NCBI GenBank assembly: GCA_041659205.1
Contig: JBAZYS010000001.1
Coordinates: 123,166 to 187,165 of the forward strand
Length of the DNA stretch: 64,000 nt
From: Minisyncoccota bacterium
Lineage (GTDB): Bacteria; Patescibacteriota; Minisyncoccia; Phycocordibacterales; UBA9973
Direction: 5' to 3'
Part shown: one piece after another, positions 16,293-40,386 of the stretch
How the letters are laid out: every line of letters begins with the position of its first letter
How positions within the stretch are numbered: position 1 is the first letter of the stretch
Position numbers and translations under genes: made by a program
The notes under the pieces: generated by a model
What the model was told of the DNA's origin: nothing
The model's database searches: none
What the model saw: only the letters and a program-made list of their open reading frames with translations

Positions 16293-16346
16293 GTGCATAC
16301 ATTAAAACTTACTTCTCTCTCAATTCTGTATTGCTTTTACTAGGCG

Positions 16347-16367
16347 CTACAGATGAGCTAACGGCCC
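16347..16367 (-). repeat. Duplicated 5' fragment (about 19-21 nt) of the tRNA-Ala gene, 54 bp upstream of the intact copy.
   Basis: ctacagatgagctaacggccc matches tRNA-Ala positions 16272-16292 (gggccgttagctcatctg in tRNA sense). Downstream of the match it diverges (..tagcgcc). Confidence 0.6.
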
Positions 16368-16498
16368 AAACAACCTAAACCAATAAACCCTATATGTACA
16401 AAGATATTCTATCTTATTTTAACAATAATGCAAATTTTGGTGTTGTTTTTTATTAAATTTCTGTTAATATAAAGAAGTTGTTTGAAAAACAACTGAAC

Positions 16499-16570
16499 TC
16501 TGGGGTAGCTCAGCGGTAGAGCGGTCGCCTGTTAAGCGATTGGTCGTAGGTTCGATCCCTACCCCCAGAG
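16499..16570 (+). tRNA. tRNA-Asn (anticodon GTT).
   Basis: The cloverleaf has acceptor tctgggg/ccccaga, D-arm gctc-agcggta-gagc, anticodon loop ctgttaa and T-loop ttcgatc. Confidence 0.85.
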
Positions 16571-18303: not shown

Positions 18304-19473
18304 ATGGAGAAAAGATTTTCAAATATTCACCCTGATGTCTTCAAATTAGGTCTTGTGAGCTTTTTAACTGATATTAGCTCAGAGGCCATCTTTTCAGTTT
18401 TTTCTGTGTTTTTCACTGTGATAGTTGGAGCTCCAGCATCGCTTCTAGGTGTGGTGGAGGGTATTTCTGACTTTTCTGCATCTTCCTTAGATTATTTTGC
18501 AGGCTGGCTTTCAGATAAAACGGGTAAAAGAAAACAATTAGCAATTTTTGGTTATGGTTTTTCTACGGTCGCAAAAGTTATTCTTTTGGTAGGAAGTTCA
18601 GTGGCAACGCTTGCATCATTTAGAATTATTGAGCGTGTGGGTAAAAGCTTTCGTGGTCCACCTAGAGATGCTTGGCTTTCTGCTGTTGCCCTTGAGTCAA
18701 ATAGAGGATATACCTTTGGTCTGCATAAAGCGATGGATAAAGCAGGCGCTATATTGGGTCCGCTCGTTGCATATTTTTTACTTTTATATTTAGGGACAAA
18801 TAGAAATACTTTTCATATTATTTTCGTTGTGGCAATATTTGGCGCACTTGGGGCAGTGCTTGTTTTGGCTCTTATGAAGGATCGTCCTGGAATTCCACAC
18901 GAACGAGAAAATATTTTTAAAGCTTGGGGGACATTGAGCCCAGCTTTTAAACTCTTTCTTATTCCTGCTGGTATTTTTTCATTAGCATATTTTAGTTTTG
19001 GTTTTTTACTCCTTCGAGCATATTCTGTCGGTTTTGCTATTAAAGATGTAGTTTTACTCTATGCGCTTTTTAACATTTCATTTGTTTTTATATCTATTCC
19101 AGTAGGGAAGCTTGGTGATTTTATTGGGCGAAGATATATTATTATTCTAGGATATTTGACTTATATTATCATGTCCCTAGGTTTCATTTTTGCAAAAGAA
19201 AAATGGGAAATAATTGCCCTATTTATTTTATTTGGTATTTTCTACAGTATTGATGAAGCTCAGAGTAAAGCATTTATTTCCGACATTGAAAAGGACAGGA
19301 GAGCGACAGCCATTGGTGCCTATAATTTTACTACCGGTTTAATTTATCTTCTTTCTTCTTTAATTGCAGGGGTTCTTTGGGTTTTGAACCCTGTTTATGC
19401 TTTTGTCTTTGCGGCTTCTGTTGCTTTTGCTGCAATGAGTGTATTTATCTATCTTTTTAAGAGAATTGTTTAA
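18304..19473 (+). CDS. Major facilitator superfamily transporter.
   Basis: It has about 12 predicted TM helices. The MFS loop-2/3 signature GKRKQ..IERVGKSFRGPPRDAW (a D-R-x-G-R-[KR]-like motif) is present. Confidence 0.8.
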   Translation: MEKRFSNIHPDVFKLGLVSFLTDISSEAIFSVFSVFFTVIVGAPASLLGVVEGISDFSASSLDYFAGWLSDKTGKRKQLAIFGYGFSTVAKVILLVGSSVATLASFRIIERVGKSFRGPPRDAWLSAVALESNRGYTFGLHKAMDKAGAILGPLVAYFLLLYLGTNRNTFHIIFVVAIFGALGAVLVLALMKDRPGIPHERENIFKAWGTLSPAFKLFLIPAGIFSLAYFSFGFLLLRAYSVGFAIKDVVLLYALFNISFVFISIPVGKLGDFIGRRYIIILGYLTYIIMSLGFIFAKEKWEIIALFILFGIFYSIDEAQSKAFISDIEKDRRATAIGAYNFTTGLIYLLSSLIAGVLWVLNPVYAFVFAASVAFAAMSVFIYLFKRIV

Positions 19474-19491
19474 CTTTTACTTTTTTTAGGT

Positions 19492-19497
19492 TATAAT
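19492..19497 (+). promoter_or_regulatory. -10 box TATAAT 6 nt upstream of the ATG at 19504 (leaderless).
   Basis: The context is ggtTATAATaaaaatATG. Confidence 0.4.
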
Positions 19498-19503
19498 AAA
19501 AAT

Positions 19504-20178
19504 ATGGAAAATATAAAAAATCATGGTATTTGGGTTATTGGTGCAGTATTATTAGTGTTTTCTTTTCTCTCTTTTGCGGCTGCTCAGAATTTTTCTAAGC
19601 AACAGTCTTATGTAGAGGTGAAAGGTTTATCAGAAAAAATTGTTAAAGCGGATGTTGCTATTTGGTCAATTAATTTTGATGTTAAGTCAAATAACATAGA
19701 TTCTCTCTATGCAGATATTGAAAAAAATACTTCTGCGATAAATTCATTTCTTTTAGCTAAAGGATTTGAGGCATCAGAAATAAATGTTGCTCCAGTAAAC
19801 ATTTATCAGGATACATATAAAGATGCTTTATTTAGGTATAATGCGACTACTCAACTGTCAGTTTACACAAAGAAAGTTGATACAGTTCGTTCTGCTTCCA
19901 AGGATACTTTGATTTTAGTAAAACAAGGTGTTACTTTAAATCAAAATTCAATTGCTTTTGAATTTTCTGATATAAACAGTGTTAAACCAGAAATGCTTGC
20001 AGAAGCTATAAAGAATGCAAAAGATGCAGCCGCTCAGTTTGCAAAAGAGTCGGGATCACATTTGGGTGGTGTTTCTCGGGGGAATCAAGGTGTGTTTGAT
20101 ATTACCGATAAGGATCCTGGTTCTCCTGAATACAAGAAGATTCGTGTAGTTTCTACTCTTAGGTTCCTTTTAAAATAA
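19504..20178 (+). CDS. SIMPL-domain (DUF541/YggE-like) secreted protein.
   Basis: It has an N-terminal signal/TM segment. Its overall pattern, with an oxidative-stress-like beta-rich core, matches the SIMPL family. The assignment is from family sequence features alone. Confidence 0.65.
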   Translation: MENIKNHGIWVIGAVLLVFSFLSFAAAQNFSKQQSYVEVKGLSEKIVKADVAIWSINFDVKSNNIDSLYADIEKNTSAINSFLLAKGFEASEINVAPVNIYQDTYKDALFRYNATTQLSVYTKKVDTVRSASKDTLILVKQGVTLNQNSIAFEFSDINSVKPEMLAEAIKNAKDAAAQFAKESGSHLGGVSRGNQGVFDITDKDPGSPEYKKIRVVSTLRFLLK

Positions 20179-20203
20179 TATTAAATAGAAAGTAGCTCAC
20201 TAA

Positions 20204-20232
20204 AAAAAAGCCGTATTATTCGGCTTTTTTTT
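20204..20232 (+). terminator. Intrinsic terminator aaaaaaaagccg-tattatt-cggctttttttt.
   Basis: The hairpin with flanking A and T runs lies between the SIMPL gene and the ATPase gene. Confidence 0.6.
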
Positions 20233-20250
20233 AGTAGAATTGTATATTAA

Positions 20251-20259
20251 TGTTATAAT
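20251..20259 (+). promoter_or_regulatory. Extended -10 TGtTATAAT 7 nt upstream of the ATG at 20267 (leaderless).
   Basis: The context is tgtTATAATacgagatATG. Confidence 0.5.
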
Positions 20260-20266
20260 ACGAGAT

Positions 20267-22897
20267 ATGAATTGGTTCAAACACATTTTTACAAAAAGTA
20301 ATAAAGATAATGAACTGATAGACTCTCTTAAGAAAAATCTTTTTGAAAAATTATACAAATTTGCACAAAATGAACCCAATTTTGCTTTTAATGAATTAAA
20401 TTCAAGAGCAGAGGGATTAAGCAATATTGAGGTAAAAAATAGATTAAAAATATATGGTTCTAATGATATTGCTGATGAAAAAAAGACAAATCATTTTTTG
20501 AAACTATTAAATATTTTAAAAGGACCTTTAAATTTACTACTTTTAGCTTTAGCCCTAGTTTCTTTTTTTGTTGGAGACATGAAGTCTTTTTGGGTAATCA
20601 TTCTAATGGTTTCCCTGAGTGTTGTTTTAAATTTTTATCAAGAAACAAAAGCTGCAATTGCTTCTGATAAGTTAAAACTAATTACGCATACTAAAACTAC
20701 TGTAATTAGAAACAATCTAAAACAGGAGATTCTATTGAGAAACGTTGTCCCGGGTGACGTTATTTATTTGTATTCAGGGACAATTATTCCAGGTGACGTG
20801 AGGTTAATCTCCTCTAAGGATTTATTTATCAATCAAGCGATGCTTACGGGTGAATCATTACCAGTAGAAAAACATGTCGTTGATTCTCTTTTGGACGAGA
20901 AAGGGGCATTAGAATTTTGTAATTTATGTTTTCTTGGTACGAGTGTCGAGTCAGGGGTAGCTACGGCTTTAGTTCTCGCTACAGGCAAAAATACATACTT
21001 GGGAAGTATTGCAACGGACATTGATAAGAATGATAACGTTTCAGATTTTAATAAAGAATTAAAACAATTTGTAATTTTGATTTTGAAATTCATGATAATT
21101 ATGGTGCCAGCTGTTTTCCTTTTAAATGGATTTTTTAAGGGTGATTGGTTTGAAGCATTTATTTTTGCGATTGCCGTCGCTGTCGGGGTTGCTCCTGAGA
21201 TGATACCGACAATCGTGGCTGTAAATTTATCTAAAGGAGCACTGGTTTTGTCAAAAAATAAAGTAATTGTAAAACACTTAGATTCAATAGAAAATCTGGG
21301 TGTGATGGATACATTATGTACAGATAAAACAGGGACACTCACAGAAGGAAAAATAATTTTGGAAAAACATCTAGATATTTATGGAAAAGAGAGTGAAGAA
21401 TCTTTACATTATGCTTTTATAAACAGTTATTTCCAGACAGGAGTTGAAAATATTATAAATGAAGCTATTTTAAAGCATGATGAAGCAAAAGAAAAACTAG
21501 AAATAGTAAATTATTCAAAAATAGATGAAATACCTTTTGATTTCAATAGGAGGAAAATGTCTGTAATCGTTAAAGACAATAAAAAAAATAAATCATTGTT
21601 AGTTTGTACGGGGGCAGTAGAGGAAATTGTTGCGTCTTGTGTAAATGTATTAGTCGATGGGAAAGTTAGTTCTTTGAAGGATTTTAGCAATGAAAAGAAA
21701 TTGTTTATAGAAAAAGAATTAAACGAAGAAGGTTTTCGGGTAGTAGCGGTAGCTTATAAAGAAACAGATATTAATAAAAAAGTATTTAATAAGGGGGATG
21801 AAGAGGACCTTACCTTTGTTGGTTTTTTAGCTTTTTTTGACCCCCCAAAACAAAGCGTTAAAGAGACGATTAAAGAATTGGAAGAAATAGGAGTAAGGGT
21901 AAAGATTCTAACTGGAGACAATGAAATAGTCACTAAAAAAATTTGTGAAGAAGTTGGTATAAAAGTTTCTAAAATACTCCTTGGTAAAGATATTGAAAAA
22001 CTAAGTGATGAAGATCTGGGGAAAGTTGTAGAAGATGTTGTCATTTTTGCAAAATTGTCTCCTTATGATAAAGAAAGAATAATAAAGGGTTTAAGAAATA
22101 GAAATCATGTGGTTGGATTTTTGGGTGATGGAATCAATGACTCTCTTTCTCTTATTGCGGCTGATATCGGTATTTCTGTTGATACTGCAGCTGACATAGC
22201 AAAAGAATCATCAGATTTAATTTTGCTTGAGAAAAGTTTACTTGTTTTAAAAGATGGAATAATTGAGGGAAGGAGAATTTTTGATAATATAATTAAATAT
22301 ATAAAAATGGCTGCTAGCTCAAACTTTGGAAATATGTTTAGCGTGGTGGGTGGAAGTATATTTCTTCCTTTTCTGCCAATGTTGCCAATACAAATTCTTA
22401 CAAATAATATGCTTTACGATTTTTCTCAAATGACGATACCCACAGATAATGTCGATGAAGATCATTTATTAAAGCCAAAAAAGTGGAATTTTAAAAACAT
22501 TAAGCGTTTTATTTTATTTTTCGGTCCAATTAGTTCACTTTTTGATTATGCTACATTTTTTGTTATGCTTTATGTTTTTAATGCCTGGACCAATCCTGAT
22601 CTTTTCCATACTGGGTGGTTCGTGGAATCTCTTCTTACTCAGACTTTGATTGTACATATTATTAGAACTAGTAAAATTCCTATTTTCCAGAGTATGGCGA
22701 GCTGGCCACTTATTGTATCTACATTAAGCGTAATAGGAATAGGAATTTATTTACCATTTTCATCATTTGCAGGAGCGTTTAAATTCTTGCCTTTGCCGCC
22801 ACTTTATTTCGTGTTATTATTTATAGGACTCTTACTATACTTTATAATTACTCAATTCCTTAAAATGTATTTTATTAAAAAATATGAGTGGATTTAG
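20267..22897 (+). CDS. P-type cation-transporting ATPase, MgtA-like (type IIIB, Mg2+-importing) architecture.
   Basis: The phosphorylation motif CTDKTGTLT, the hinge GDGINDS and TGES-type actuator region are present, with 10 TM helices. The track start at 20240 is a TTG; the ATG at 20267 fits the promoter. Confidence 0.85.
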   Translation: MNWFKHIFTKSNKDNELIDSLKKNLFEKLYKFAQNEPNFAFNELNSRAEGLSNIEVKNRLKIYGSNDIADEKKTNHFLKLLNILKGPLNLLLLALALVSFFVGDMKSFWVIILMVSLSVVLNFYQETKAAIASDKLKLITHTKTTVIRNNLKQEILLRNVVPGDVIYLYSGTIIPGDVRLISSKDLFINQAMLTGESLPVEKHVVDSLLDEKGALEFCNLCFLGTSVESGVATALVLATGKNTYLGSIATDIDKNDNVSDFNKELKQFVILILKFMIIMVPAVFLLNGFFKGDWFEAFIFAIAVAVGVAPEMIPTIVAVNLSKGALVLSKNKVIVKHLDSIENLGVMDTLCTDKTGTLTEGKIILEKHLDIYGKESEESLHYAFINSYFQTGVENIINEAILKHDEAKEKLEIVNYSKIDEIPFDFNRRKMSVIVKDNKKNKSLLVCTGAVEEIVASCVNVLVDGKVSSLKDFSNEKKLFIEKELNEEGFRVVAVAYKETDINKKVFNKGDEEDLTFVGFLAFFDPPKQSVKETIKELEEIGVRVKILTGDNEIVTKKICEEVGIKVSKILLGKDIEKLSDEDLGKVVEDVVIFAKLSPYDKERIIKGLRNRNHVVGFLGDGINDSLSLIAADIGISVDTAADIAKESSDLILLEKSLLVLKDGIIEGRRIFDNIIKYIKMAASSNFGNMFSVVGGSIFLPFLPMLPIQILTNNMLYDFSQMTIPTDNVDEDHLLKPKKWNFKNIKRFILFFGPISSLFDYATFFVMLYVFNAWTNPDLFHTGWFVESLLTQTLIVHIIRTSKIPIFQSMASWPLIVSTLSVIGIGIYLPFSSFAGAFKFLPLPPLYFVLLFIGLLLYFIITQFLKMYFIKKYEWI

Positions 22898-22927
22898 TTG
22901 TTTAATTATTAAGACATACTTTTTGTT

Positions 22928-23428
22928 ATGAAGAAAAAAACTTTATTGAGAAAAAAAAAGAAATTAGTAATGGTCAGTGGTGGTTTTGATCCTATGCATA
23001 TTGGTCATGTGCGTATGTTTAATGAAGCAAAAAAATTAGGAACGGAGCTCGTTGTGGTTTTAAATAATGATAATTGGCTGCATTTAAAAAAGGGATATGT
23101 CTTTATGCCTCAACATGAAAGAAAAGAGATAATAGAGGCTCTAGAGGCAGTAGATAAGGTAATAATAACAGGGCATCCACCAGAAACTAAAGATATAAGT
23201 GTTTGTGAGGAATTACGAAAAATTAAGCCCCATGTTTTTGCAAATGGAGGAGATCGAAAACCTGACTGGGATCCTGTGCCTGAAGTAATGGTATGCAAAG
23301 AGCTTGGCATTGAAATGGTATATAATGTAGGTCATGGTGGAAAAGTTAGAAGTTCCTCAGATTTAGTTAAAGAAGCAAAAATTAAAGCAGCTGCTAAAAA
23401 GAAAGCTAAGCGTAGCGGTAAAAAATAA
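22928..23428 (+). CDS. Cytidylyl/adenylyltransferase-like nucleotidyltransferase with a HxGH motif, plus a Lys-rich C-terminal tail.
   Basis: SGGFDPMHIGH matches the (T/H)xGH signature of the cytidylyltransferase/RfaE-domain-II/TagD superfamily. Confidence 0.7.
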   Translation: MKKKTLLRKKKKLVMVSGGFDPMHIGHVRMFNEAKKLGTELVVVLNNDNWLHLKKGYVFMPQHERKEIIEALEAVDKVIITGHPPETKDISVCEELRKIKPHVFANGGDRKPDWDPVPEVMVCKELGIEMVYNVGHGGKVRSSSDLVKEAKIKAAAKKKAKRSGKK

Positions 23429-23429
23429 A

Positions 23430-24191
23430 ATGAAACCTTTAAGTGAATTTTCAAAAAAAGATTTTAGTAAAATAAAAATGATAGTTTTTGACGTGGATGG
23501 TGTTCTTGTCCCAAGAGGGACAAAAATAAAACAAAAAGGGAATACTACTACCTTAGAAACAAAAGTAATTCATGCAAAACAAATAGAGCAAATAAAAAAA
23601 CTTTATGAGTATGGATTGTTGATAAATATTAGCTCTGGTAGAGGGCTTTACATGCTTCAAGAAATGTTCAGAGATATTCTACCCTTTGTTAGTCTTACTT
23701 ATGAGAATGGTAGTGCTACTTGGTATAAAGGGCGTGTTTATCAACATGTGAATAGTTTTGAGTACATAAAAGATATTTTTCCTAAATTAAAAAAAGTAGT
23801 AAATAAAAATAAAAAAGTAAAAGGCTTTGAACCCAAAGAATTTATCATTACAATTCATTGTAATGAAAGAGTACCTGAAATTGAAAAAATTGTAAAAAAT
23901 GAAGGAGGTCTTGTTACTGTGTGGAATGGTGAGGCTTATGATATTTTAATAAATAGAAAACAAACAAAAGCAGTAGGGTTGAGGCATGCAATGGAGATTT
24001 TTAAACTGAAAAAAGAAAACGTAATGGCGATAGGAGATAATTATAATGACCAAGAGCTTCTAAGAGAGAGTGGAATGCCTATATCAGCAGATAAAAGCAG
24101 AGTTAAGGGTAAATTTTATGTTCCTCTTAAAGGTAAATTTCTTCCGGCAGATGAGTTAATGCAAAAAATATTAGCTTTAAAAAAATCATGA
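23430..24191 (+). CDS. HAD-superfamily hydrolase (Cof/HAD-IIB-like sugar-phosphate phosphatase).
   Basis: Motif I FDVDGVL and motif IV IGDNYND are present, with a cap insertion between them. Confidence 0.75.
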   Translation: MKPLSEFSKKDFSKIKMIVFDVDGVLVPRGTKIKQKGNTTTLETKVIHAKQIEQIKKLYEYGLLINISSGRGLYMLQEMFRDILPFVSLTYENGSATWYKGRVYQHVNSFEYIKDIFPKLKKVVNKNKKVKGFEPKEFIITIHCNERVPEIEKIVKNEGGLVTVWNGEAYDILINRKQTKAVGLRHAMEIFKLKKENVMAIGDNYNDQELLRESGMPISADKSRVKGKFYVPLKGKFLPADELMQKILALKKS

Positions 24192-24529
24192 AAACTCTTA
24201 TTGTAAAAAAACCCTGGGGTCAGTTTGATCAGTTTACTCATAATGAATTGACAACTGTTAAAATCCTTTCGGTTAATCAAGGTAGCTCTTTGAGCTTACA
24301 ACAACATAACCATAGAACAGAATTTTGGCGGGTTATTTCAGGGCATCCTCAGGTAACCGTCGGAAATGATACAATAATTGCAAATCCCGGGGATGAGTTT
24401 ATAATTGAAGTATTACAATTACATAGATTAGAGGCGCGAGAGGATGACGTCCAAGTCCTAGAAATCGCTTTTGGTGATTTTGATGAAAGTGATATTATAA
24501 GGATAAAGGATAAATATGGCCGCGCCTAA
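24188..24529 (+). CDS. Cupin-domain protein of the mannose-6-phosphate isomerase type II (ManC C-terminal domain-like) class.
   Basis: KPWGQFDQF...LSLQQHNHRTEFWRVISG matches the EKPWG...LSLQ.H.HR.E.W..V.G signature of PMI-type cupins. Confidence 0.65.
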   Translation: MKTLIVKKPWGQFDQFTHNELTTVKILSVNQGSSLSLQQHNHRTEFWRVISGHPQVTVGNDTIIANPGDEFIIEVLQLHRLEAREDDVQVLEIAFGDFDESDIIRIKDKYGRA

Positions 24530-25739
24530 AAAAAAGAAAACAATACAGAAAGTAGTTAAAAAAACTATCAAAAAGGTTATTGTCAAAAAAAAGACAATAA
24601 TAAAAAAATCTGCCGCAAAAATAAAAAAACTTACTAAAAAGACTACTCGTAAAACAAAAAGTAAAACTAATCGTACCCCGAAGACCTTAAAACTCTCCAG
24701 ATCATTTAATAATCCAATCATCGGGCCTAGATCTTATTCTTGGGAATCTCAAGCTGTATTTAATCCAGCTGTTGTATCTTTGGGTGGGAGGATACATCTT
24801 TTTTACAGAGCGCTTGGTGATGATGGAGTTTCACGTATTGGTTATGCTTCTAGTAAAGACGGAATAAATTTTGATGACAGACTTCTCTATCCAGTATATT
24901 TTCTGAAGAATGTGGAGGAGATAAAAGAGCACTGGCCCTTTACTTCTCCATCACGTCCTGTTTATGACACGATGCTTTATGCTTCAGGTGGTGGGTGGGG
25001 TGGCTGTGAAGACCCTCGAGCTGTGGTTATGGATGGTTACGTTTATATGACCTTTAATGTTTTTAGTGGGTGGAATACTATGCGCGTAGCGGTGACTTCA
25101 ATTAAGGAGGAAGATTTACTTGATAAAAAATGGGACTGGAAAAATTTTGCATATCTTACTCGTCCCGGTGATAGACAGAAAAATTGGGTTTTATTTCCTG
25201 AAAAAATAAATGGTAAGTTTGCGATTTTTCATAATTTAGATAAAGGTGATAGTTCAAAAGTTGCAGTAGCTTATGTAAATAAACTTGATTATTCAGAGAC
25301 ACCAGATATCAAAGATGCACCCGATCCCCAAGTATTGCCAGACCATGTGGTCGCTTGGCATAAACGTACCCGTAGCGCTGCTTCACCACCAATAAAAACC
25401 AAGGAAGGCTGGCTTCTTTTATATCATGCGATGGATAAAGAAGATGGTAATCGTTACAAACTAGGAGCATTATTGCTTGATTTAAAAGACCCTGAAAAAG
25501 TTCTTTATAGAGCAGCTCATCCTATTTTTGAACCAGATGCCTGGTACGAAAATGATTGGAAGCCAGGAATTATTTATGCAAGTGGGGCAATCGTGATAAA
25601 AGATAAACTTTTTGTTTATTATGGTGGTGGAGATAAGTATATTGGGGTAGCTTCTGTTTCACTTAATGATTTGATAGATAGTATGAAAAAGAAAGGTTCG
25701 ATAAAATTAGAAAAAAATAAATCACTGAAGTTTGAATAA
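24516..25739 (+). CDS. GH130-family (DUF377) glycoside phosphorylase-like protein with an unusual ~60-aa Lys-rich N-terminal extension.
   Basis: GGGWGGCEDPRAVVMDGYVYMTF contains the GH130 CEDPR motif. The N-terminal MAAPKKKKTIQKVVKKTIKKVIVKKKTIIKKSAAKIKKLTKK has no alternative ATG before the catalytic domain. Confidence 0.75.
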   Translation: MAAPKKKKTIQKVVKKTIKKVIVKKKTIIKKSAAKIKKLTKKTTRKTKSKTNRTPKTLKLSRSFNNPIIGPRSYSWESQAVFNPAVVSLGGRIHLFYRALGDDGVSRIGYASSKDGINFDDRLLYPVYFLKNVEEIKEHWPFTSPSRPVYDTMLYASGGGWGGCEDPRAVVMDGYVYMTFNVFSGWNTMRVAVTSIKEEDLLDKKWDWKNFAYLTRPGDRQKNWVLFPEKINGKFAIFHNLDKGDSSKVAVAYVNKLDYSETPDIKDAPDPQVLPDHVVAWHKRTRSAASPPIKTKEGWLLLYHAMDKEDGNRYKLGALLLDLKDPEKVLYRAAHPIFEPDAWYENDWKPGIIYASGAIVIKDKLFVYYGGGDKYIGVASVSLNDLIDSMKKKGSIKLEKNKSLKFE

Positions 25740-25744
25740 TATCT

Positions 25745-27676
25745 ATGTATGTAGCAAAAAGATCTCACCATAATCCAATCCTTACACCCTATAGAGATAA
25801 CTATTGGGAATCTTTTGCGACCTTTAATATGAGCGTCATTAAAAAAGGTAAAACTTTTTATGGTGTTTATCGTGCTATCGGAGCAGAAGATAAATTACTT
25901 ACACCTAGCCAAATTTCTATAATAGGTATTGGAAAATCAAAAGATGGTAGACATTTCGAAGACCGTATTCCTTTTATTACACCAAAAGAGGAGTGGGAAA
26001 AATACGGCTGTGAAGATCCAAGAATTACATTTTTTGAGGGTAAATATTATACTTTTTATACCGCGCTTTCGAAATTTCCTTTTGAGGCGAGTGGAATCAA
26101 GGTAGCGGTAGCAATTTCAAAGGATTTAAAAAAAGTAAGTGAACGTCATTTGGTGACACCTTTTAATGCAAAAGCGATGACGCTTTTTCCAGAACGTATA
26201 AATGGAAAGATTACAGTTATTGTGACAGTAAATACAGACATGCCTCCTACAAAAATTGCCGTAGCTCAAGTTAATAAAATAGAAGAATTATGGAATCAAA
26301 AATTTTGGGATAAATGGTATGCAAAAATTGATGAACATGTAATTGATTTAAAAAGGGTCCCTACTGATCATACAGAAATTGGTGCTCCTCCGATAAAAAC
26401 CACCCACGGCTGGCTTATTTTATATTCTCATATACAGCACTATTTTTATTCACCTGATAATCATGACCGTATTTTTGGAATTGAGGCAGTCCTTCTCGAT
26501 TTTGAGAATCCTTTGAAGATACTGGGACGCACTCGTGGTCCGATATTAGTACCCAGTGAGGCATACGAACTTCTAGGTCATGTTCCGAATATAGTGTTTC
26601 CTTCTGGGGCTATTTTGGACAAGGATGTTCTCTCTATTTATTATGGAGCGGCAGATACTACTACTTGTCTTGCGCATGTAAATATTATTGACCTTGTTTC
26701 AACTATGCGCCCACAAACAAGTACAAGGTGGCACTTCTTACGTTCTTTGAATAATCCAATTATAAAACCTGATAAAACACATCCATGGGAGGCGCAAGCG
26801 ACTTTCAATCCTGCCGCTTTACGTATTCGAAATACAACTCATATATTGTATAGAGCACTTTCGGCAGACAATACTTCTACTGTTGGTTACGCATCAACTA
26901 AGGATGGTTTTTTTATTAATGAAAGATTGGTTGATCCTGTGTATATTCCAAGAGAAGGTTTTGAATTAAAAAAAATAGCTGGGGGGAATTCAGGATGTGA
27001 AGATCCCAGGCTGACAAAGATAGGGAAGACTATTTATATGTGCTATACCGCTTTTGACGGCATTGGTCCACCACGAGTAGCAGTTACTTCTATCTCAGAG
27101 AAAAATTTTCTTGCAAAAAAGTGGCAATGGGAAAAACCAATTCTAATTACCCCTGCTGGTTTTGACGACAAAGATACTTGTATTTTGTCTGAAAAAACAA
27201 AAGGAAAATATTTTGTTCTTCACCGGGTGGGTGGAGAAGTTTGTGGAGATTATTTAAAATCGCTTAATTTTACAACAGATACTATTAGGAAATGTATTAG
27301 AATTATTGGACCAAGAAAAAATAAATGGGACAGTGAAAAAGTTGGTATTTCTGCGCCACCCCTGAAGACAAAATACGGATGGCTGCTTCTTTATCATGGG
27401 ATATCTAAAAATCACCATACCTATCGCGTTGGGGCGGCACTCCTTGATATAAATGATCCAGCAATAGTGCTCGCTCGTATTTCTGATCCAATATTTGAAC
27501 CAGAAGAATCATATGAGAAAAGTGGGGTAGTTAATGATGTAGTTTTTCCATGTGGAATGGCGGAAAAAGATGGGATACTCTTTATTTATTATGGTGGAGC
27601 AGATACCGTCGTTGGGGTAGCGACAATAGAGCTCGATATTCTCCTTCGTGCTCTTACTCGAGACATAAAAAAGTGA
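25745..27676 (+). CDS. Tandem double GH130-family glycoside phosphorylase-like protein (two DUF377/GH130 domains).
   Basis: There are two CEDPR motifs (YGCEDPRITFFEGKYY and SGCEDPRLTKIGKTIY), and each domain is about 300 aa. Confidence 0.75.
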   Translation: MYVAKRSHHNPILTPYRDNYWESFATFNMSVIKKGKTFYGVYRAIGAEDKLLTPSQISIIGIGKSKDGRHFEDRIPFITPKEEWEKYGCEDPRITFFEGKYYTFYTALSKFPFEASGIKVAVAISKDLKKVSERHLVTPFNAKAMTLFPERINGKITVIVTVNTDMPPTKIAVAQVNKIEELWNQKFWDKWYAKIDEHVIDLKRVPTDHTEIGAPPIKTTHGWLILYSHIQHYFYSPDNHDRIFGIEAVLLDFENPLKILGRTRGPILVPSEAYELLGHVPNIVFPSGAILDKDVLSIYYGAADTTTCLAHVNIIDLVSTMRPQTSTRWHFLRSLNNPIIKPDKTHPWEAQATFNPAALRIRNTTHILYRALSADNTSTVGYASTKDGFFINERLVDPVYIPREGFELKKIAGGNSGCEDPRLTKIGKTIYMCYTAFDGIGPPRVAVTSISEKNFLAKKWQWEKPILITPAGFDDKDTCILSEKTKGKYFVLHRVGGEVCGDYLKSLNFTTDTIRKCIRIIGPRKNKWDSEKVGISAPPLKTKYGWLLLYHGISKNHHTYRVGAALLDINDPAIVLARISDPIFEPEESYEKSGVVNDVVFPCGMAEKDGILFIYYGGADTVVGVATIELDILLRALTRDIKK

Positions 27677-27717
27677 TATAGTAAAAATATGCTTCTTTTG
27701 GTTGCAATGAATATATA

Positions 27718-30700
27718 ATGAAAAAATTATTACTGACTCGTATTTTAATTGTTAGTACTTTCTTGTTTTGTCTCTTTTTTTCGAGAACAGCTTTTGCGGC
27801 TACTTTAACATTGGGAACTACTGGAGCACTTCCTTTTGATTTAGTAGTGGACGGGGCTGGGAACATATATACAGCGAATTATGTTGCCAGCAATGTTTCG
27901 AAAATTACTCCAGCTGGAGTTTCCACTGTGTTGGGGGTGACGGGTACGAGCCCAGTCGCCATAACTATAGATGCTGCGGGAAATGTGTACACTGCAAATT
28001 CAGGCTCAAATAATGTTTCTAAAATTACCCCAGCGGGAGTGTCAACAATTTTAGGTACTACTGGTTCAAGTCCTTACGGTATAACAATAGACGGAGCAGG
28101 CAATGTGTATACAGCGAATATTGGCTCAAACGATATTTCTAAAATTACTCCAGCAGGGGTGTCTACGATATTTGCAACAACTGGTACTAGTGCACCTTAT
28201 GACATCATTTTGGATGGCGCTGGGAATTTGTATACAGCAAATCCTGGGACGCAAGAGATTTGGAAAATTACCCCCGCTGGTGTCGCTTCTGTTTTAGGCA
28301 CCACTGCGAGTAACGCATACAACTTAGTAATGGATAGTGCCGGTAATATCTACGCGCCAAACTCTAATCCCTCATATACTATTTCTAAAATTACACCAGC
28401 GGGGGCATCTTCCATCTTCGCAGCGGTGACTGCTGACTCTAGTAATATTACAATAGACAGCATCGACAATTTATATATCTCGAATTCCTTTTTGAATAAT
28501 GTTGAGAAGATCACGCCCCTTGGTGTGCTCACGGTTGTGGGTACAACTGGTCTCTATCCGCGTTCTGTTGCGGTGGACGCCACAGGCAATATTTACACAG
28601 GAGACAGCGATTCTAACACTATAACGAAAATTACAAATCCAGCTATCACTGAAACAATACCGGTTCCTAACCCGACAACAACAGATGGTCTATTTTACAC
28701 TTTTGACTCCAATAGTGATGGAGTGATCACTTATGGAGGTTCTTGCAGTTCTGCAACAACGAATGCAGTAGTGGGGAGCAACACAATCACCTTTAATACT
28801 CTTGCAATCGGTACGTACTCTAACTGTTCAATATTTATTACCGACGGGTTTGGCCAGAGCAATACACTCAGTCTCGGATTATTTTATGTAGGTGGAAGTC
28901 ATAACGCTACCGTTTCATCTACGTCTTACACTGTCAGTGTCGGTGGTACGCCGACTGAGACGATAAGTAATGTACCTTACGGAACATCTAAAGCTACATT
29001 TCTTGCAAACTTAACTCCAAACTATGTCGTTCAAACATGGAACGATATTGGTGTTCATGACCCAGTAATTAATGGTGACACTTTGATTATTACTGCAGAA
29101 GATGGCACCACTATAGTGACTTATGATATTTCTGTAATACCTCCAAGTGCTGATGCTACAATTACATCTGCAACATATACCGTGACTGCAGGTGGGACAG
29201 CAAATGAAACTATAAGTAATGTTATGTTTGGAACATCCAAAGCTACTTTTCTTGCAAATTTAAGTCAAGGCTATCCTGTGCAGACATTGAATGATATTGG
29301 GATACATGACCCAGTGGTAAATGGTGACATACTAGTGGTAACTGCAGAAGATGGAATTACAATAGTTACCTACACAGTAGCAGTAAATCCTCAATTAGTT
29401 GGTCCGGCGTCTCTAATAGAATTAGATATTGATATTGCAGGTACAGCTAGTTTTAATTCATATGCTTATGGTCCTAAAAATAATATTTCACTAGATAATA
29501 GATATGTAGTTTTTTCTTCATCTGCAGAAAATCTTGTATTGGATGATACTAATTTAGTAACAGATATTTTTCTAAGAGATACTCAAACAAATACTACAAC
29601 TCGTGTGTCGGTAGCTACTGATGGGGCAGAAGGAAATGCGAGTTCTTATAATACTGCGATTTCTTCTGATGGAAGGTACGTAGTTTTCCAGTCAGATGCC
29701 ACTAATCTTGTATTGGATGATATTAATGGAATGACAGATATTTTTTTAAGAGATACTCAAACAAATACTACAACTCGTGTGTCAGTAGCCACCGATGGGG
29801 CAGAAGGAAATGCGAGTTCTTATAATACTGCGATTTCTTCTGATGGAAGGTACGTAGTTTTCCAATCAGATGCGACCAACTTTGTATTGGATGATACTAA
29901 TTTAGTAACAGATATTTTTCTAAGAGATACTCAAACAAATACTACAACTCGTGTGTCAGTAGCCACCGATGGAACAGAGGGAAATGATTATTCGACAGCA
30001 TCTTTTATATCTTCTGATGGAAGATATGTCGTTTTTGAATCAGTTGCGACTAACCTTGTATTGGATGATACTAATTTAACAACGGATATTTTTCTAAGAG
30101 ATACTCAAACAAATACTACAACTCGTGTGTCGGTAGCTACTGATGGAACCGAAGGGAATAATACTTCCGCTTACTCTGCTATTTCAGGGGATGGTAAATA
30201 TATTGCTTTTCGATCATATGCCACAAACCTTGTAACTGGAGATACAAATAACCAAAGAGATATTTTCTTACGGAATTTGCAAAATAATACTACTACTCGT
30301 GTCTCAGTTTCTTCTTCTGGCGTAGAAGGGGATGGTGCTTCTTATGCTCCTTCCATTTCATCTGACGGAAGATATGTAGCTTTTAGATCGCTTGCCACAA
30401 ATCTTGTAACGGGGGACATAAATAGTTTGTCTGACATTTTTGTACGAGATATTTTAAATAATATCACTACTCGTATATCACTTTCTGTGGACGGGCTAGA
30501 GTCAAACAGTAGTTCTGATTATCCTACTATTTCTGCTGATGGAAAATATGTTGCTTTTCAGTCAAATGCTACAAATCTTATTCCTGATATTCCAGGTTCT
30601 GGCCAGGGTAATTATTATTTAGCTAGAGTTAGAGATCCCATTATTGTCACCCCTGTTCCACAAGATAGTGGTCCGGTTATATTAACTTATGCAGGTAGAG

Positions 30701-31056
30701 TAATGCCTATACTCATTACTCCCATTATTTCAATTACTCCCATTATTCCAATTTCTCCGGTTTTTCAAATGACAGAAACTGTTTGTAGAATAGGAGAAAA
30801 ATTTAGCACAAATACAGGCTTACCCTGTACGTCTTATCAAAATCCTCCAGTATTAAATTGCCCTATTACTCTTACTTTAAGACTTGGCAGTAAGGGAGTT
30901 CAAGTTAAATGCTTGCAGATTGGCCTTAATATATCATCTGATGGTAGTTTTGGCTTAAAAACTAAAGCAGCAGTCATTGTATTTCAAAAGAGTAAAAACT
31001 TAGTACCAGATGGAATTTTTGGGCCTAAATCTAGAGCATTGTGGGACAAGAATTAA
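27718..31056 (+). CDS. Secreted beta-propeller repeat protein. It has an N-terminal repeat region (SKITPAGVSTxxG), six or seven PD40/TolB-like repeats (SSDGRYVVFQSDATNLV..DIFLRD) and a C-terminal peptidoglycan-binding (PG_binding_1-like) domain.
   Basis: Signal peptide MKKLLLTRILIVSTFLFCLFFSRTAFAA is present. The ~58-aa repeats are near-identical. The C-terminus LRLGSKGVQVKCLQIGLNISSDGSFGLKTKAAVIVFQKSKNLVPDGIFGPKSRALW fits the PGBD consensus. Confidence 0.75.
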   Translation: MKKLLLTRILIVSTFLFCLFFSRTAFAATLTLGTTGALPFDLVVDGAGNIYTANYVASNVSKITPAGVSTVLGVTGTSPVAITIDAAGNVYTANSGSNNVSKITPAGVSTILGTTGSSPYGITIDGAGNVYTANIGSNDISKITPAGVSTIFATTGTSAPYDIILDGAGNLYTANPGTQEIWKITPAGVASVLGTTASNAYNLVMDSAGNIYAPNSNPSYTISKITPAGASSIFAAVTADSSNITIDSIDNLYISNSFLNNVEKITPLGVLTVVGTTGLYPRSVAVDATGNIYTGDSDSNTITKITNPAITETIPVPNPTTTDGLFYTFDSNSDGVITYGGSCSSATTNAVVGSNTITFNTLAIGTYSNCSIFITDGFGQSNTLSLGLFYVGGSHNATVSSTSYTVSVGGTPTETISNVPYGTSKATFLANLTPNYVVQTWNDIGVHDPVINGDTLIITAEDGTTIVTYDISVIPPSADATITSATYTVTAGGTANETISNVMFGTSKATFLANLSQGYPVQTLNDIGIHDPVVNGDILVVTAEDGITIVTYTVAVNPQLVGPASLIELDIDIAGTASFNSYAYGPKNNISLDNRYVVFSSSAENLVLDDTNLVTDIFLRDTQTNTTTRVSVATDGAEGNASSYNTAISSDGRYVVFQSDATNLVLDDINGMTDIFLRDTQTNTTTRVSVATDGAEGNASSYNTAISSDGRYVVFQSDATNFVLDDTNLVTDIFLRDTQTNTTTRVSVATDGTEGNDYSTASFISSDGRYVVFESVATNLVLDDTNLTTDIFLRDTQTNTTTRVSVATDGTEGNNTSAYSAISGDGKYIAFRSYATNLVTGDTNNQRDIFLRNLQNNTTTRVSVSSSGVEGDGASYAPSISSDGRYVAFRSLATNLVTGDINSLSDIFVRDILNNITTRISLSVDGLESNSSSDYPTISADGKYVAFQSNATNLIPDIPGSGQGNYYLARVRDPIIVTPVPQDSGPVILTYAGRVMPILITPIISITPIIPISPVFQMTETVCRIGEKFSTNTGLPCTSYQNPPVLNCPITLTLRLGSKGVQVKCLQIGLNISSDGSFGLKTKAAVIVFQKSKNLVPDGIFGPKSRALWDKN
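29530..30580 (+). repeat. Tandem 174-bp coding repeats (six units; the first four are over 90% identical at DNA level) inside the 27718 gene.
   Basis: Unit starts fall at about 29530, 29704, 29878, 30052, 30226 and 30400. Long identical strings such as gatatttttctaagagatactcaaacaaatactacaactcgtgtgtc recur. Confidence 0.8.
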
Positions 31057-31061
31057 AATTG

Positions 31062-31070
31062 TGATATAAT
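31062..31070 (+). promoter_or_regulatory. Extended -10 TGaTATAAT 6 nt upstream of the hpf ATG (leaderless).
   Basis: The context is gtgaTATAATtttaatATG. Confidence 0.5.
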
Positions 31071-31076
31071 TTTAAT

Positions 31077-31472
31077 ATGCAAATAAATTTACAAGGAAAG
31101 GGAATGGAATTAACAGAAGCTATTAAAGATTATGTCTTAAAAAGAGTTACTAATTTAGATAAATTACTTTCTGGTATTGAGAAAAGGGGAGGAGAGGTAA
31201 ATGCAAATTTTGAAGTTGTTAAAACTACAAATCATCACAAAGCCGGTGAGATTTTTCACGCAAGTTGCAAAATTAATCTAGATGGTAAAAGTTTTTTTGG
31301 TGAAAGTGATCATGAAGATTTATATAGTGCAATTGATGAGGTGAAAGAAACCCTTTTTAGTGAAATAAGTAAAAGTAAAGACCGCAAACAAACACTTTTT
31401 AAACGTGGAGCCTCGAGTGTTAAGAAAATGTTAAAAGGTCTCTCCAATAGGAATCCTTTTACTTCTAAGTAG
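31077..31472 (+). CDS. hpf: Ribosome hibernation promoting factor / RaiA family protein.
   Basis: The N-terminus MQINLQGKGMELTEAIKDYV matches the HPF/YfiA consensus (M.I.I.G....T.A...YV), and the length is typical of a short HPF. Confidence 0.75.
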   Translation: MQINLQGKGMELTEAIKDYVLKRVTNLDKLLSGIEKRGGEVNANFEVVKTTNHHKAGEIFHASCKINLDGKSFFGESDHEDLYSAIDEVKETLFSEISKSKDRKQTLFKRGASSVKKMLKGLSNRNPFTSK

Positions 31473-32382
31473 AAGATCTTAGAAAGTCTTCATATTTTAT
31501 CTCTTTTTTACCTTCAGGTAATACTTTTTTTATTATGAATTGTCCGTTTTCTAATGTGGCATCCGTGATGATGATTCTCTTATCATTATGAAAAAAGAAA
31601 GTGCGGGGCCAAGCTGCATAAGCCCTAAATTTATTGTAATTTTTTATAGCATCAGCTTTTAAATCTATTAAACCATCTTCTTTTTTAATTTTTTTACAAA
31701 AGGTTGCTTTTTTTTCATCTTGGATTATTTCTTCGGTATCTCCATTTATATATACAGGTAAAGTTTTTACTAAAAGGTCACCACCCAACTTTATTAAACG
31801 TTTGCGTAATTCTATAGCTTTCTCGTCAGGGAAGATGTTTACTTTTTCTTCACTTATAATAGGACCAGAATCCATCTGGTATTCCATTTTTTGTATAGTA
31901 ATGCCTGTTTCTGTGTCACCGTTTAAAATGGCTGACTCTACAGGTGAGGCACCACGATACTTAGGAAGTAGAGAATAATGTATATTTATGGAGCCCAATT
32001 TAGGAATATTTAAAATATTTTCAGGTATTATTTTTCCATAAGCAACAACCAAGAAGAGCTGGATATTACTTTTATCACCACACATATTTTCCTGCTGGAA
32101 AATTGCTCTTCTCGCCTCGTCAGGCTGCGAAAGGGTTCTAAAAGCAATATCCAGCTCTTCTTTTGTGAGTTTCGCTGGTTGAATGTATGGAATATTATTT
32201 TTTTGAGCCCAGACCTTTACGGGCGGTGGGGTGATAATCATTTTGCGTCCTTGGGGTTTGTCAGGGGAGGTAACAATAAGAGATGGAATATATCCATTTT
32301 CCTTTAAAATTTCTAAAGTTTCCTCAGCTACGTCCGGTGTACCCCAAAATACAAAATTTAAATTATTGTTTTGTGTATCCAT
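31465..32382 (-). CDS. fmt: Methionyl-tRNA formyltransferase.
   Basis: VFWGTPDVA, HYSLLPKYRGASPV and the formyltransferase N- and C-domains are present. It is the last gene of the lepB-hisS-def-fmt operon. Confidence 0.9.
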   Translation of the reverse strand: MDTQNNNLNFVFWGTPDVAEETLEILKENGYIPSLIVTSPDKPQGRKMIITPPPVKVWAQKNNIPYIQPAKLTKEELDIAFRTLSQPDEARRAIFQQENMCGDKSNIQLFLVVAYGKIIPENILNIPKLGSINIHYSLLPKYRGASPVESAILNGDTETGITIQKMEYQMDSGPIISEEKVNIFPDEKAIELRKRLIKLGGDLLVKTLPVYINGDTEEIIQDEKKATFCKKIKKEDGLIDLKADAIKNYNKFRAYAAWPRTFFFHNDKRIIITDATLENGQFIIKKVLPEGKKEIKYEDFLRSST

Positions 32383-40333: not shown

Positions 40334-40351
40334 AATTTTAAAACTGAAATT

Positions 40352-40386
40352 AAAAAAGCCGCAGAGTGAATCGTACGGCTTTTGGG
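40352..40386 (+). terminator. Hairpin with a T-run after gap.
   Basis: The hairpin is aaaaaagccg-(14 nt loop)-cggcttttg. Confidence 0.45.

Follow-up and report, generated by a model that had tools for sequence, protein, structure and literature searches.

The operon described here lies in a 64,000-nucleotide stretch of contig JBAZYS010000001.1 (Minisyncoccota bacterium, assembly GCA_041659205.1, positions 123,166 to 187,165), which as a whole is called the window below. It consists of five genes, which code for a nucleotidyltransferase (NT), an enzyme of the HAD-IIB group, a cupin of the mannose-6-phosphate isomerase (PMI) type, and two proteins, GH130A and GH130NC, that between them carry three GH130 domains (A in the former, N and C in the latter). 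We propose that this is a conserved operon of the Paceibacteria (Candidate Phyla Radiation, CPR) for a cytoplasmic beta-1,2-mannoside cycle, in which an endogenous beta-1,2-mannoside, most likely a mannogen-like reserve or an envelope-bound glycan, would be both made and recycled. We put the probability of this reading at about 50%, since the enzymatic activities, the direction of flux and the existence of the polymer are all read from the genes. An earlier note on this DNA had taken the five genes for a mannose-phosphate and beta-mannoside operon, and this general picture holds. All five open reading frames (ORFs) are present in the same orientation, the Pfam matches of all five proteins to their hidden Markov models (HMMs) lie above the family gathering scores, the motifs HIGH, KPWG and, three times, CEDPR are found in the translations, and a PMI cupin, GH130 domains and a HAD slot for mannose phosphates stand together.

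The gene order of the operon was found again in 26 genome loci, from a scan of one genome per GTDB species, and in 13 metagenome loci (four, and then nine by way of a phosphomannomutase (PMM)-type query) of other Paceibacteria. Since the order recurs in so many loci, the operon is a conserved trait of the lineage and not a chance juxtaposition, in keeping with the investment by a reduced genome that had been suspected. The genome loci belong to Nomura-, Taylor-, Vogel- and Moranii-bacteria and to unclassified Patescibacteria (47-89% identity in the scan), and the core order cupin - GH130A - GH130NC is kept down to 47% identity in the four named groups. The proteins of the window were compared by local phmmer and tblastn with loci L001-L030 (the 26 genome and four metagenome loci); the neighbourhood covered 10-20 kb around each homologue, and statements of absence refer to that stretch. 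Wherever sequence is present in these loci GH130A lies directly upstream of GH130NC, while the cupin adjoins the GH130 pair in 22 of the 30 and NT is upstream of the GH130 genes in 18. GH130NC, of 643 aa, is identical to one protein of a 'Candidatus Paceibacterota' metagenome-assembled genome (MAG). Besides the window's own cluster (P0001), the representatives of at least 119 others share 74-89% identity with it; each is 615-665 aa long and comes from a genome or metagenome of the Paceibacteria/Nomurabacteria type. Since an operon of about 4.7 kb is strongly conserved in genomes shorn of most biosynthesis, mannoside metabolism would appear to be central to this lineage, either as a carbon and energy reserve or at the envelope/host interface.

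The junctions between the five genes are, in order, +1, -4, -14 and +5 nt (two overlapping and two near-abutting), and the genes are therefore almost certainly co-transcribed and partly translationally coupled. A hydropathy scan found no signal peptide or transmembrane segment in any of the five proteins, whose peak Kyte-Doolittle value over 19 residues is at most 1.43, compared with 3.0 for a nearby transporter of the major facilitator superfamily (MFS). All five are predicted to be cytoplasmic.

Three GH130 domains with one linkage signature

The domains were judged by a diagnostic scheme that takes in the proton-donor Asp, the phosphate-binding Arg and His (R168 and H231 of UhgbMP) and the residues of the +1 subsite (Li et al. 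2020; Cuskin et al. 2015; Ladeveze et al. 2025). At UhgbMP positions 59, 103, 150 and 304, R/E/K/D denotes beta-1,2 and R/Y/R/D beta-1,4 linkage (Li et al. 2020). Positions are given below in Uhgb_MS numbering, in which R47, E136, K184, R202 and R242 are framework residues (Ladeveze et al. 2025, PMC12814180), while D137, H201, H261, Y269 and D329 were counted here from HMMER coordinates. The phosphate pair R168/H231 of UhgbMP corresponds to R202/H261 of Uhgb_MS, and the proton donor is D104 in UhgbMP and D142 in BT3780. The reference sequences for the alignment were rebuilt from HMMER output with their termini missing. Residues were counted in 85 distinct domain sequences, taken from the loci and aligned with an HMM, contig-end-truncated sequences excepted.

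Pfam family PF04041 (cut-off 26) matches the 407-aa GH130A with 125 bits and GH130NC with 310 bits in two stretches, and phmmer searches of the PDB with the GH130 domains gave E values of 1e-38 to 1e-54. For all three domains the closest solved relatives are Teth514_1788 (9FJ8) and Teth514_1789 (7FIP), followed by Lin0857 and Uhgb_MS, with beta-1,4 enzymes and BT3780-type hydrolases scoring far lower. The beta-1,2-mannobiose phosphorylase model NF052550 (cut-off 450) is missed by both proteins, with 403.5 bits for GH130NC, a sum over two domains, and 195 bits for GH130A. Since the three domains share only 36-41% identity with one another, they are old paralogues; to the Teth514 enzymes they show 38-45%, and at 36-45% identity to solved GH130 enzymes each would adopt the five-bladed beta-propeller fold.

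No complete sequence among the 85, whether of type A, N or C, departs from R47, E136, D137, K184 and D329 (signature REDKD). Because of this R/E/K/D signature, and since the Teth514 enzymes are the closest relatives, N-glycan fragments, which the earlier note had suggested, and beta-1,4-linked mannosides are unlikely substrates. It is in the phosphate site that the domains part. The complete Arg/His pair is present in 27 of 27 complete C sequences, but in none of 29 N and none of 28 A sequences. The expectation of intact catalytic and phosphate-binding residues is thus borne out in the window for the catalytic Asp in all three domains and for the Arg/His pair in domain C alone. Since the sugar subsites are common to the three paralogues while the nucleophile/leaving-group site is different, they probably differ in chemistry and not in linkage, and the triplication does not point to different substrate specificities as had been supposed. 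The operon is likely to encode one phosphorylase and two variants with a remodelled nucleophile site, set apart by their chemistry rather than by their substrate.

Domain C keeps H493-R494 (nt 27221-27226), H551 and Y560, and matches PDB entry 7fip with 183 bits over aa 331-631. The residues at H201/R202/H261/Y269 are HRHY in all 27 complete locus sequences and in 119 of 120 protein clusters. As the sole GH130 domain of the operon with a full phosphate site, it is predicted to be a beta-1,2-mannoside phosphorylase.

Domain N has V160-T161 (nt 26222-26227) in place of His-Arg, S228 in place of His and F244 in place of Tyr. The pattern V/L/F/I, T/S/G, S/C, F is seen in 29 of 29 locus sequences and in about 116 of the 120 clusters, and the phosphate pair is absent from all 29 and all 120. 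A motif D208-H209-x-E211-x-G (of which D208-H209-x-E211 is nt 26366-26377) is inserted where canonical enzymes carry the second phosphate ligand (R242 of Uhgb_MS, 'ARVG'); it occurs in every one of the 29 N sequences and in no A or C domain. When domain N was searched with HMMER against 1.8 billion cluster representatives, 124 clusters were obtained at E <= 1e-30. Among the best 150 matches 28 domains carry the N-type signature, 29 with that of the window (representatives at 50% identity), some of them within tandem proteins and others on their own in proteins of 320-335 aa. Two positions past the R242 equivalent these 29 all have an acidic residue, Glu in 28 and Asp in one, and the His of the motif is not conserved. 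Domain N is not decaying: in 28-29 distinct sequences its median identity to the window is 0.65 and its invariant positions number 31, compared with 0.66 and 27 for domain C, and with conservation of this order it should be functional.

A carboxylate in the phosphate pocket converts GH130 phosphorylases into the beta-1,2-mannosidases of GH130_3 (Cuskin et al. 2015, PMC4599007). Like BT3780 and BACOVA_03624, two members of that subfamily from Bacteroides, domain N keeps the catalytic Asp, the adjacent Glu and the Lys determinant, has lost the basic ligands and has, as placed by alignment, a carboxylate in the pocket. BT3780, however, has two glutamates (E227 and E268), whereas domain N has Thr/Ser, and no carboxylate, at the equivalent of the first and a single invariant Glu near the second: E211 sits two residues after the R242 equivalent, and by an argument from residue spacing E268 would fall within 1-2 residues of it. 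Furthermore, the characterised GH130_3 members carry signal peptides (BT3780 itself does not), whereas domain N is cytoplasmic and fused to a phosphorylase. It scores 135 bits against Teth514_1788 and 51-64 bits against BT3780-type structures, reaches 192 bits in the GH130_3-type family test NF058598 (below the cut-off of 550) and has no hydrophobic N-terminus. Since its sequence is far closer to the Teth514 phosphorylases, any conversion to a hydrolase would have been independent. We suggest that domain N is probably hydrolase-like, with E211 in the former phosphate pocket, but it may be a metal-dependent transferase or serve for binding only; the N-type may accordingly stand for an independent phosphorylase-to-hydrolase conversion or for a conversion to some other chemistry.

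In domain A an Asn replaces the phosphate Arg (H239-N240, nt 25230-25235), and the His (LYHAM) and Tyr (RYKLGA) are kept. The pair of the A type is incomplete in 28 of 28 sequences, through replacement of Arg by Ser or Asn or of His by Asn, Gln or Ser; the patterns are HSHY (14 sequences), HRNY (4), HNHY (3, the window's), HRQY (3), HSQY (2), YNHY (1) and HRSY (1). GH130A keeps three of the four phosphate contacts. In the decision tree of Ladeveze et al. 2025 (PMC12814180), a GH130 or GT108 enzyme with a short L2 loop and only three phosphate contacts is a 'GT with no or weak GP', where GT stands for glycosyltransferase and GP for glycoside phosphorylase. Loss of the phosphate Arg abolishes GP activity in GT108 and lowers it 16-fold in Uhgb_MS (the latter PMC12814180), and all beta-1,2 GH130 phosphorylases tested accept GDP-mannose (PMC12814180). 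Since three of the four contacts are kept and loss of the Arg curbs GP activity elsewhere, GH130A would be the best candidate for a transferase in the operon. Uhgb_MS and the other GH130 enzymes with dual GP/GT activity (Ladeveze et al. 2025, PMC12814180) share with the window's domains the fold and the beta-1,2 signature, and domain C is expected to have, as they do, an L2 loop that is short or turned outward. Enzymes of the Uhgb_MS type keep all phosphate ligands and show GT activity as a weak side reaction, whereas the window's variants lack one or all of these ligands and are encoded beside a predicted NDP-sugar-forming enzyme (NDP, nucleoside diphosphate).

GH130A begins with a Lys-rich tail. 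Relatives have one of three things in this place: a K-rich tail of 31-84 aa, a single hydrophobic helix that may span the membrane (L020, L022, L026), or a further, degenerate GH130-like domain, which in some A-type proteins has lost EDPR and is clearly dead. A polybasic or membrane-tethered N-terminus of this kind suggests that GH130A is active on the cytoplasmic side of the membrane or on a polyanion. NT, too, is Lys-rich at its N- and C-termini (22928-22966 and 23377-23428).

It could be argued that domains A and N are non-catalytic pseudo-enzymes for carbohydrate binding or scaffolding, which hold the chain or form a pseudo-heterodimer with the phosphorylase domain; such a role could be combined with either direction of flux. 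GH130 enzymes are dimers or higher oligomers in which the form of the donor site depends on the dimer interface (Ladeveze et al. 2025, PMC12814180), the five residues of the REDKD signature are all sugar ligands besides being catalytic residues, a dead extra domain does exist on the A-type protein in other lineages, and tandem and triple GH130 fusions are common. Nevertheless, we consider this explanation improbable, since domain N, as conserved as domain C, has gained an invariant acidic residue in the nucleophile pocket that looks like a catalytic or ligand site and not like decay, since N-type domains also occur on their own, and since the truly dead domains are without the Asp that A and N keep.

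The three types are found fused in one chain of 971 aa (P0361), and there are also a 645-aa protein with a C-type domain ahead of an N-type domain (P0372) and a 697-aa tandem of A and C (P0405). These fusions suggest that the A, N and C types work together. In another protein, P0452 (702 aa), a LacI-family regulator is fused to a canonical GH130 domain.

The isomerase, the nucleotidyltransferase and the HAD slot

The cupin matches PF01050 with 69.4 bits (cut-off 23.6), with KPWG at aa 8-11 and a QQHNHRTEFW motif, and the His/Glu motif can be read in the sequence as LSLQQHNHRTEFW and LHRLE. It aligns solely with the C-terminal PMI part of the GMP_PMI model TIGR01479 (profile positions 359-467 of 467) and is predicted to be a stand-alone type-II mannose-6-phosphate isomerase. 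Longer 'cupin' ORFs in L014, L025, L026 and L029 were considered as fusions and rejected, being ORF-calling extensions upstream of the true RPWG start.

NT matches PF01467 (CTP_transf_like) with 50.4 bits (cut-off 21), with HIGH at aa 24-27 and RSSS at aa 141-144. Its best NCBIfam match, rfaE_dom_II (TIGR02199), reaches 69.3 bits, far under the cut-off of 181.5, and by that test NT is placed in the broader PF01467 family and not with HldC/RfaE-II. Sequence matches in the PDB are 3GLV, ECT, TagD and HldC. With an AlphaFold2 (AF2) model of pLDDT 84, Foldseek returned TagD, HldC (root-mean-square deviation 1.7 A) and 3GLV, all near 1e-9, and CCT was likewise close. By sequence and fold 3GLV, TagD, HldC and CCT are equidistant from NT, and its genetic context tells more. 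We infer that NT is the mannose-1-phosphate (Man1P) nucleotidyltransferase of the pathway because it is fused in frame to a PF01050 cupin in three independent clusters (P0195, P0198 and P0225, 269-272 aa), lies immediately upstream of a PMM-type gene in all eight metagenome loci with upstream sequence, and directly abuts GH130A in L030.

The fused proteins have the same arrangement, a nucleotidyltransferase with a C-terminal PF01050 cupin, as the type-II PMI-GMP enzymes ManC, AlgA and XanB (TIGR01479). In the window, the ManC-like pair are separate genes of one operon with the HAD gene between them. The transferase module of ManC, AlgA and XanB has the PF00483 sugar-nucleotidyltransferase fold, whereas the window's module, of 150 aa, has the HIGH-motif PF01467 fold as in HldC and TagD.

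The HAD enzyme of the window matches PF08282/PF00702 with 67.4 bits (cut-off 20.9) and the HAD-IIB model TIGR01484 with 53.7 bits (cut-off 41.8). The motifs DVDG, SSGR, K180 and GDNYND are present, and D21-x-D23, S68-S69, K180 and G202-D203-x-x-N206-D207 are invariant in 31 homologues. There are 802 homologues at E <= 1e-5, and the best 120 of these 802 have 75-100% identity. No match to PF03332 and no PMM among the PDB sequence matches was found, and the top Foldseek matches of its AF2 model (pLDDT 79.5) are PH1421, GK1056, SupH, trehalose-6-phosphate phosphatases and TA0175. The fold of the window's protein is therefore closest to phosphatases, as the earlier note had it, but the slot that it occupies holds a PMM type in most relatives. 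This PMM-type HAD, which stands between NT and the cupin, has 255 aa and a PF03332 match of 54 bits (L005 and others), and its best match in the PDB is 4BND, a HAD-type alpha-phosphoglucomutase from Lactococcus (E = 2.5e-30), with PMM2 and PMM1 next. It occupies the slot or adjoins the GH130 pair in 19 of the 26 genome loci (some upstream, some just downstream) and in nine of nine metagenome loci, all of which are ordered NT - PMM-type - (cupin) - GH130A - GH130NC.

The window's kind, a Cof-type HAD, is present also in L001/2, L003/4, L012 and L016. The two types never occur together in a locus and are mixed among close relatives; L005 has the PMM type, yet its NC protein is 89% identical to that of the window. 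In L038 (1777-2571) a chimeric HAD has its first ~16 codons of the Cof type (MKPLEQLSKKELSKIK) joined at DVDG to a PMM-type body, which by its sequence is the recombination scar of a swap in place. No PMM-type HAD turned up when the rest of the 64-kb window was searched, and Pfam found no alpha-D-phosphohexomutase in 10 other ORFs of the window, only glycolytic and pentose-phosphate genes. Since the PMM-type gene fills the slot in most relatives, the function of the slot is most simply the interconversion of mannose-6-phosphate (Man6P) and Man1P, and the window's Cof-type HAD would then perform it as well. A mannosylglycerate-type route, with the HAD enzyme as an MPGP-like phosphatase, was rejected, as MPGP matches are very weak (18-20 bits) and GH130 makes beta- and not alpha-mannosides.

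Alternatively, NT and the HAD enzyme might have nothing to do with mannose and be merely co-transcribed with the other genes, for example as a RibL-like FAD synthetase or TagD-like glycerol-3-phosphate cytidylyltransferase together with a generic sugar-phosphate or riboflavin-pathway phosphatase. The best PDB match of NT, 3GLV, is an uncharacterised archaeal protein, and TagD and CCT are equally close in fold; there are weak NCBIfam matches to RibF-related and YcsE-related families of the riboflavin pathway, and neither protein reaches an NCBIfam equivalog cut-off. On the other hand, the three in-frame fusions to the cupin, the constant place of NT upstream of the PMM-type mutase in the metagenome loci, its abutment on GH130A in L030, the coupled start and stop codons in the window and the alternation of the HAD slot with a bona fide hexose-phosphate mutase family make such a separate function highly improbable.

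Synthesis and recycling compared with salvage

In the cycle that we propose, the cupin PMI would interconvert fructose-6-phosphate and Man6P, the HAD-IIB slot enzyme would interconvert Man6P and alpha-Man1P, and NT would form NDP-mannose from Man1P and a nucleoside triphosphate. GH130A is the candidate for the next step, in which mannose would be transferred from NDP-mannose (or Man1P) to an acceptor to give the beta-1,2-mannoside. Domain C would then cleave the mannoside with inorganic phosphate and return alpha-Man1P to the pool, and the fused domain N would probably hydrolyse what the phosphorylase cannot process. A Pfam scan and the comparison of loci found no transporter or secreted glycanase within the operon. 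Since the route from fructose-6-phosphate towards NDP-mannose is encoded and a transporter or secreted glycanase is not, endogenous synthesis and recycling fits at least as well as salvage.

The compact salvage route of the earlier note is the main rival and, in our judgement, less likely. In its pure form, beta-1,2-mannooligosaccharides from a host or the environment would be cut in the cytoplasm by domain C, the hydrolase-like domain N and GH130A, and Man1P would pass through PMM and PMI to fructose-6-phosphate for fermentation, with NT as a side branch that supplies NDP-mannose for glycosylation. The closest characterised cluster, Teth514_1785-1796, has been interpreted as a salvage system (PMC4264767). 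Domain C has the canonical phosphorylase signature, the invariant carboxylate in the former phosphate pocket of domain N resembles that of the GH130_3 mannosidases, the window, L001, L005 and L008 have the gene of an MFS transporter 2-3 genes upstream, glycolytic and pentose-phosphate genes share the window, and CPR bacteria are thought to be host-dependent. Against this, a transporter, a binding protein and a secreted endo-glycanase are all missing from the operon, in contrast to the Thermoanaerobacter cluster, and the linkage of the MFS gene is inconsistent across loci. The operon is also near-universal and 74-89% conserved in the lineage, although beta-1,2-mannans are, as far as we are aware, rare in nature. 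Moreover, ATP-sparing phosphorolysis has been dispensed with in two domains out of three, which would be odd for pure energy salvage, and the NT-PMI fusion and the tight coupling of NT to PMM point to flux towards NDP-mannose.

Several points weigh against synthesis and recycling. We know of no PF01467-family enzyme that uses alpha-Man1P, and HldC/RfaE-II, the nearest member acting on a sugar 1-phosphate, uses the beta-anomer, whereas GH130 chemistry needs the alpha-anomer. Nor do we know of any beta-1,2-mannan reported from CPR bacteria. NT is absent from about one third of the loci in the neighbourhood examined, PMM and alpha-phosphoglucomutase structures rank 31 and below among the Foldseek matches of the window's HAD enzyme, behind many phosphatases, and the hydrolase-like Glu of domain N points to catabolism. 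Lastly, the GT activity of GH130 enzymes is weak and may be without a physiological role, and R202 is predicted to help hold the diphosphate of GDP-mannose, so that without it both transfer and phosphorolysis could suffer (Ladeveze et al. 2025, PMC12814180).

The nearest described system, Teth514_1785-1796 of Thermoanaerobacter sp. X-514 (Chiku et al. 2014, PMC4264767), is likewise cytoplasmic, with adjacent GH130 beta-1,2 (GH130_6-like) paralogues, a neighbouring nucleotidyltransferase and Man1P as its hub. It has in addition an ABC importer, a GH5 glycanase and a GT4 alpha-mannosyltransferase, and has no PMM or PMI (PMC4264767), whereas the window's operon includes PMI and the PMM-slot enzyme and has no transporter. 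Both of its two GH130 proteins are full phosphorylases, whereas two of the window's three domains are without a complete phosphate pair, and its nucleotidyltransferase is annotated as mannose-1-phosphate guanylyltransferase, whereas that of the window is a PF01467 enzyme.

A second likeness is to the mannogen cycle of Leishmania, in which five-bladed propeller paralogues (GT108, MTP1-7) divide the transferase and phosphorylase work (Sernee 2019; Franceus 2024, PMC10913872), as we propose for the window. The strict GDP-mannose transferases of GT108 have the phosphate Arg replaced, the beta-1,2-mannan is cytoplasmic, and recycling runs through Man1P, PMM and PMI (PMC10913872). The window's domains, however, are GH130 and not GT108, with no MTP structure among the PDB matches at E <= 1e-3. 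The Arg is replaced by Asn, Ser or Thr in domains of the window's type and by His in the strict GT108 transferases, and one window domain has gained a Glu. The polymer is known in Leishmania and predicted here. Formally the proposed cycle, to which we give about an even chance, would be the Leishmania mannogen cycle assembled from GH130 parts.

Whether the GT side activity of beta-1,2 GH130 phosphorylases matters physiologically is a question raised by Ladeveze et al. 2025 (PMC12814180). The operon offers natural test cases for it: its three paralogous domains are alike in their sugar subsites and have lost the phosphate site to different degrees, and enzymes for Man1P and probably NDP-mannose are encoded alongside. 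The most specific version of our proposal is that Paceibacteria make an intracellular or membrane-proximal beta-1,2-mannan, with phosphate-site-less GH130 proteins as NDP-mannose-dependent synthases, the PF01467 NT as donor supply and breakdown by the hydrolase-phosphorylase. We regard this version as rather unlikely; if true, it would give a GH130 enzyme its first physiological role as a glycosyltransferase and CPR bacteria their first described storage-glycan cycle.

A full-text search of the literature on GH130 in Patescibacteria, CPR, Parcubacteria, Paceibacteria and Nomurabacteria turned up nothing beyond one Microgenomates genome in which two GH130 genes are mentioned in passing, and no paper in the collection searched describes the operon. 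Four features appear to be new: the N-type clade, which has lost the phosphate site, has gained an invariant Glu and is fused to a phosphorylase; the A type, whose Arg/His pair is always incomplete and whose N-terminus is polybasic or of the membrane kind; a PF01467 transferase in a ManC-like role; and interchangeable Cof- and PMM-type HADs. The database names 'Predicted GH43/DUF377 glycosyl hydrolase', 'HAD phosphatase' and 'heptose-1-P adenylyltransferase' are probably misleading for these proteins.

Layout of the operon and neighbouring genes

Positions of the five genes, the GH130 domains and their motifs in the window
Feature	Positions	Strand	Remarks
Nucleotidyltransferase (NT), 166 aa	22928-23428	+	PF01467 match
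HAD-IIB enzyme, 253 aa	23430-24191	+	PF08282/PF00702 and TIGR01484 matches
PMI-type cupin, 113 aa	24188-24529	+	PF01050 match
GH130A protein, 407 aa	24516-25739	+	one PF04041 domain
Lys-rich low-complexity N-terminal tail of GH130A, ~59 aa, K+R = 0.44	24516-24692	+	
GH130 domain A, aa 60-388	24693-25679	+	PF04041 125 bits; PDB 9fj8 E = 1.9e-44
CEDPR, domain A	25005-25019	+	Glu, beta-1,2 determinant; Asp, predicted proton donor
GH130NC protein, 643 aa	25745-27676	+	two PF04041 domains (N, C)
GH130 domain N, aa 4-319	25754-26701	+	PDB 9fj8 E = 2.2e-38
CEDPR, domain N	26009-26023	+	Glu, beta-1,2 determinant; Asp, predicted proton donor
GH130 domain C, aa 331-635	26735-27649	+	full beta-1,2-mannoside phosphorylase signature
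CEDPR, domain C	26996-27010	+	Glu, beta-1,2 determinant; Asp, predicted proton donor

A promoter and terminator scan of 19400-31600 gave counts equal to the shuffled expectation; a TTTATA-17-TATAAT site at 22820-22848, 5' of the first gene, is not significant. Rfam found no riboswitch or leader RNA near the operon, and its sole matches in the whole window are five tRNAs (16220-16570 and 62717-63729). An MgtA-type Mg2+-translocating P-type ATPase (20240-22897, +; TIGR01524, 1078 bits) ends 30 nt upstream of the operon, and its stop codon overlaps the start of NT in L001, L005, L007 and L010; the two may be co-transcribed. The ATPase is preceded, also in several relatives, by an MFS_1 transporter (18304-19473) and a SIMPL/DUF541 protein (19504-20178).

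In L001 (5785-7860) a 209-aa gene, an N6/N4 DNA methyltransferase and an EcoO109I-type restriction enzyme lie between GH130A and GH130NC, and the cupin is missing; from this insertion it appears that the operon tolerates splitting by a mobile restriction-modification cassette. Three operon-bearing records, L028 (CAZBKB010000002.1), L008 and L023, are labelled 'uncultured Gammaproteobacteria' or 'Saccharibacteria', which are probably errors of MAG binning or labelling.

Downstream, 27718-31056 (+) codes for a protein of 1112 aa whose N-terminus is hydrophobic; it has NHL/Vgb-lyase-like and PD40 beta-propeller repeats, several internal repeats that are nearly identical (FLRDTQTNTTTRVSVATDG...) and a peptidoglycan-binding domain at its C-terminal end. 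This gene lies between GH130NC and the gene of a ribosome hibernation factor (31077-31472), and since the latter almost directly follows the GH130 gene in L005, L001 and L007, the gene of the 1112-aa protein looks like a lineage-specific insertion.

Central-carbon genes are found at 56751-60284 and 39290-45808 (D-2-hydroxyacid dehydrogenase, DUF4147/MOFRL of the glycerate-kinase type, enolase and GAPDH), with a split transketolase at 42865-44722 and a PfkB-family sugar kinase at 44813-45808 (-). This kinase could phosphorylate free mannose arising from hydrolysis or from mannobiose phosphorolysis. The window also holds four very large + strand ORFs (1461, 1568, 1226 and 1676 aa) in 204-13030 and 47373-52403.

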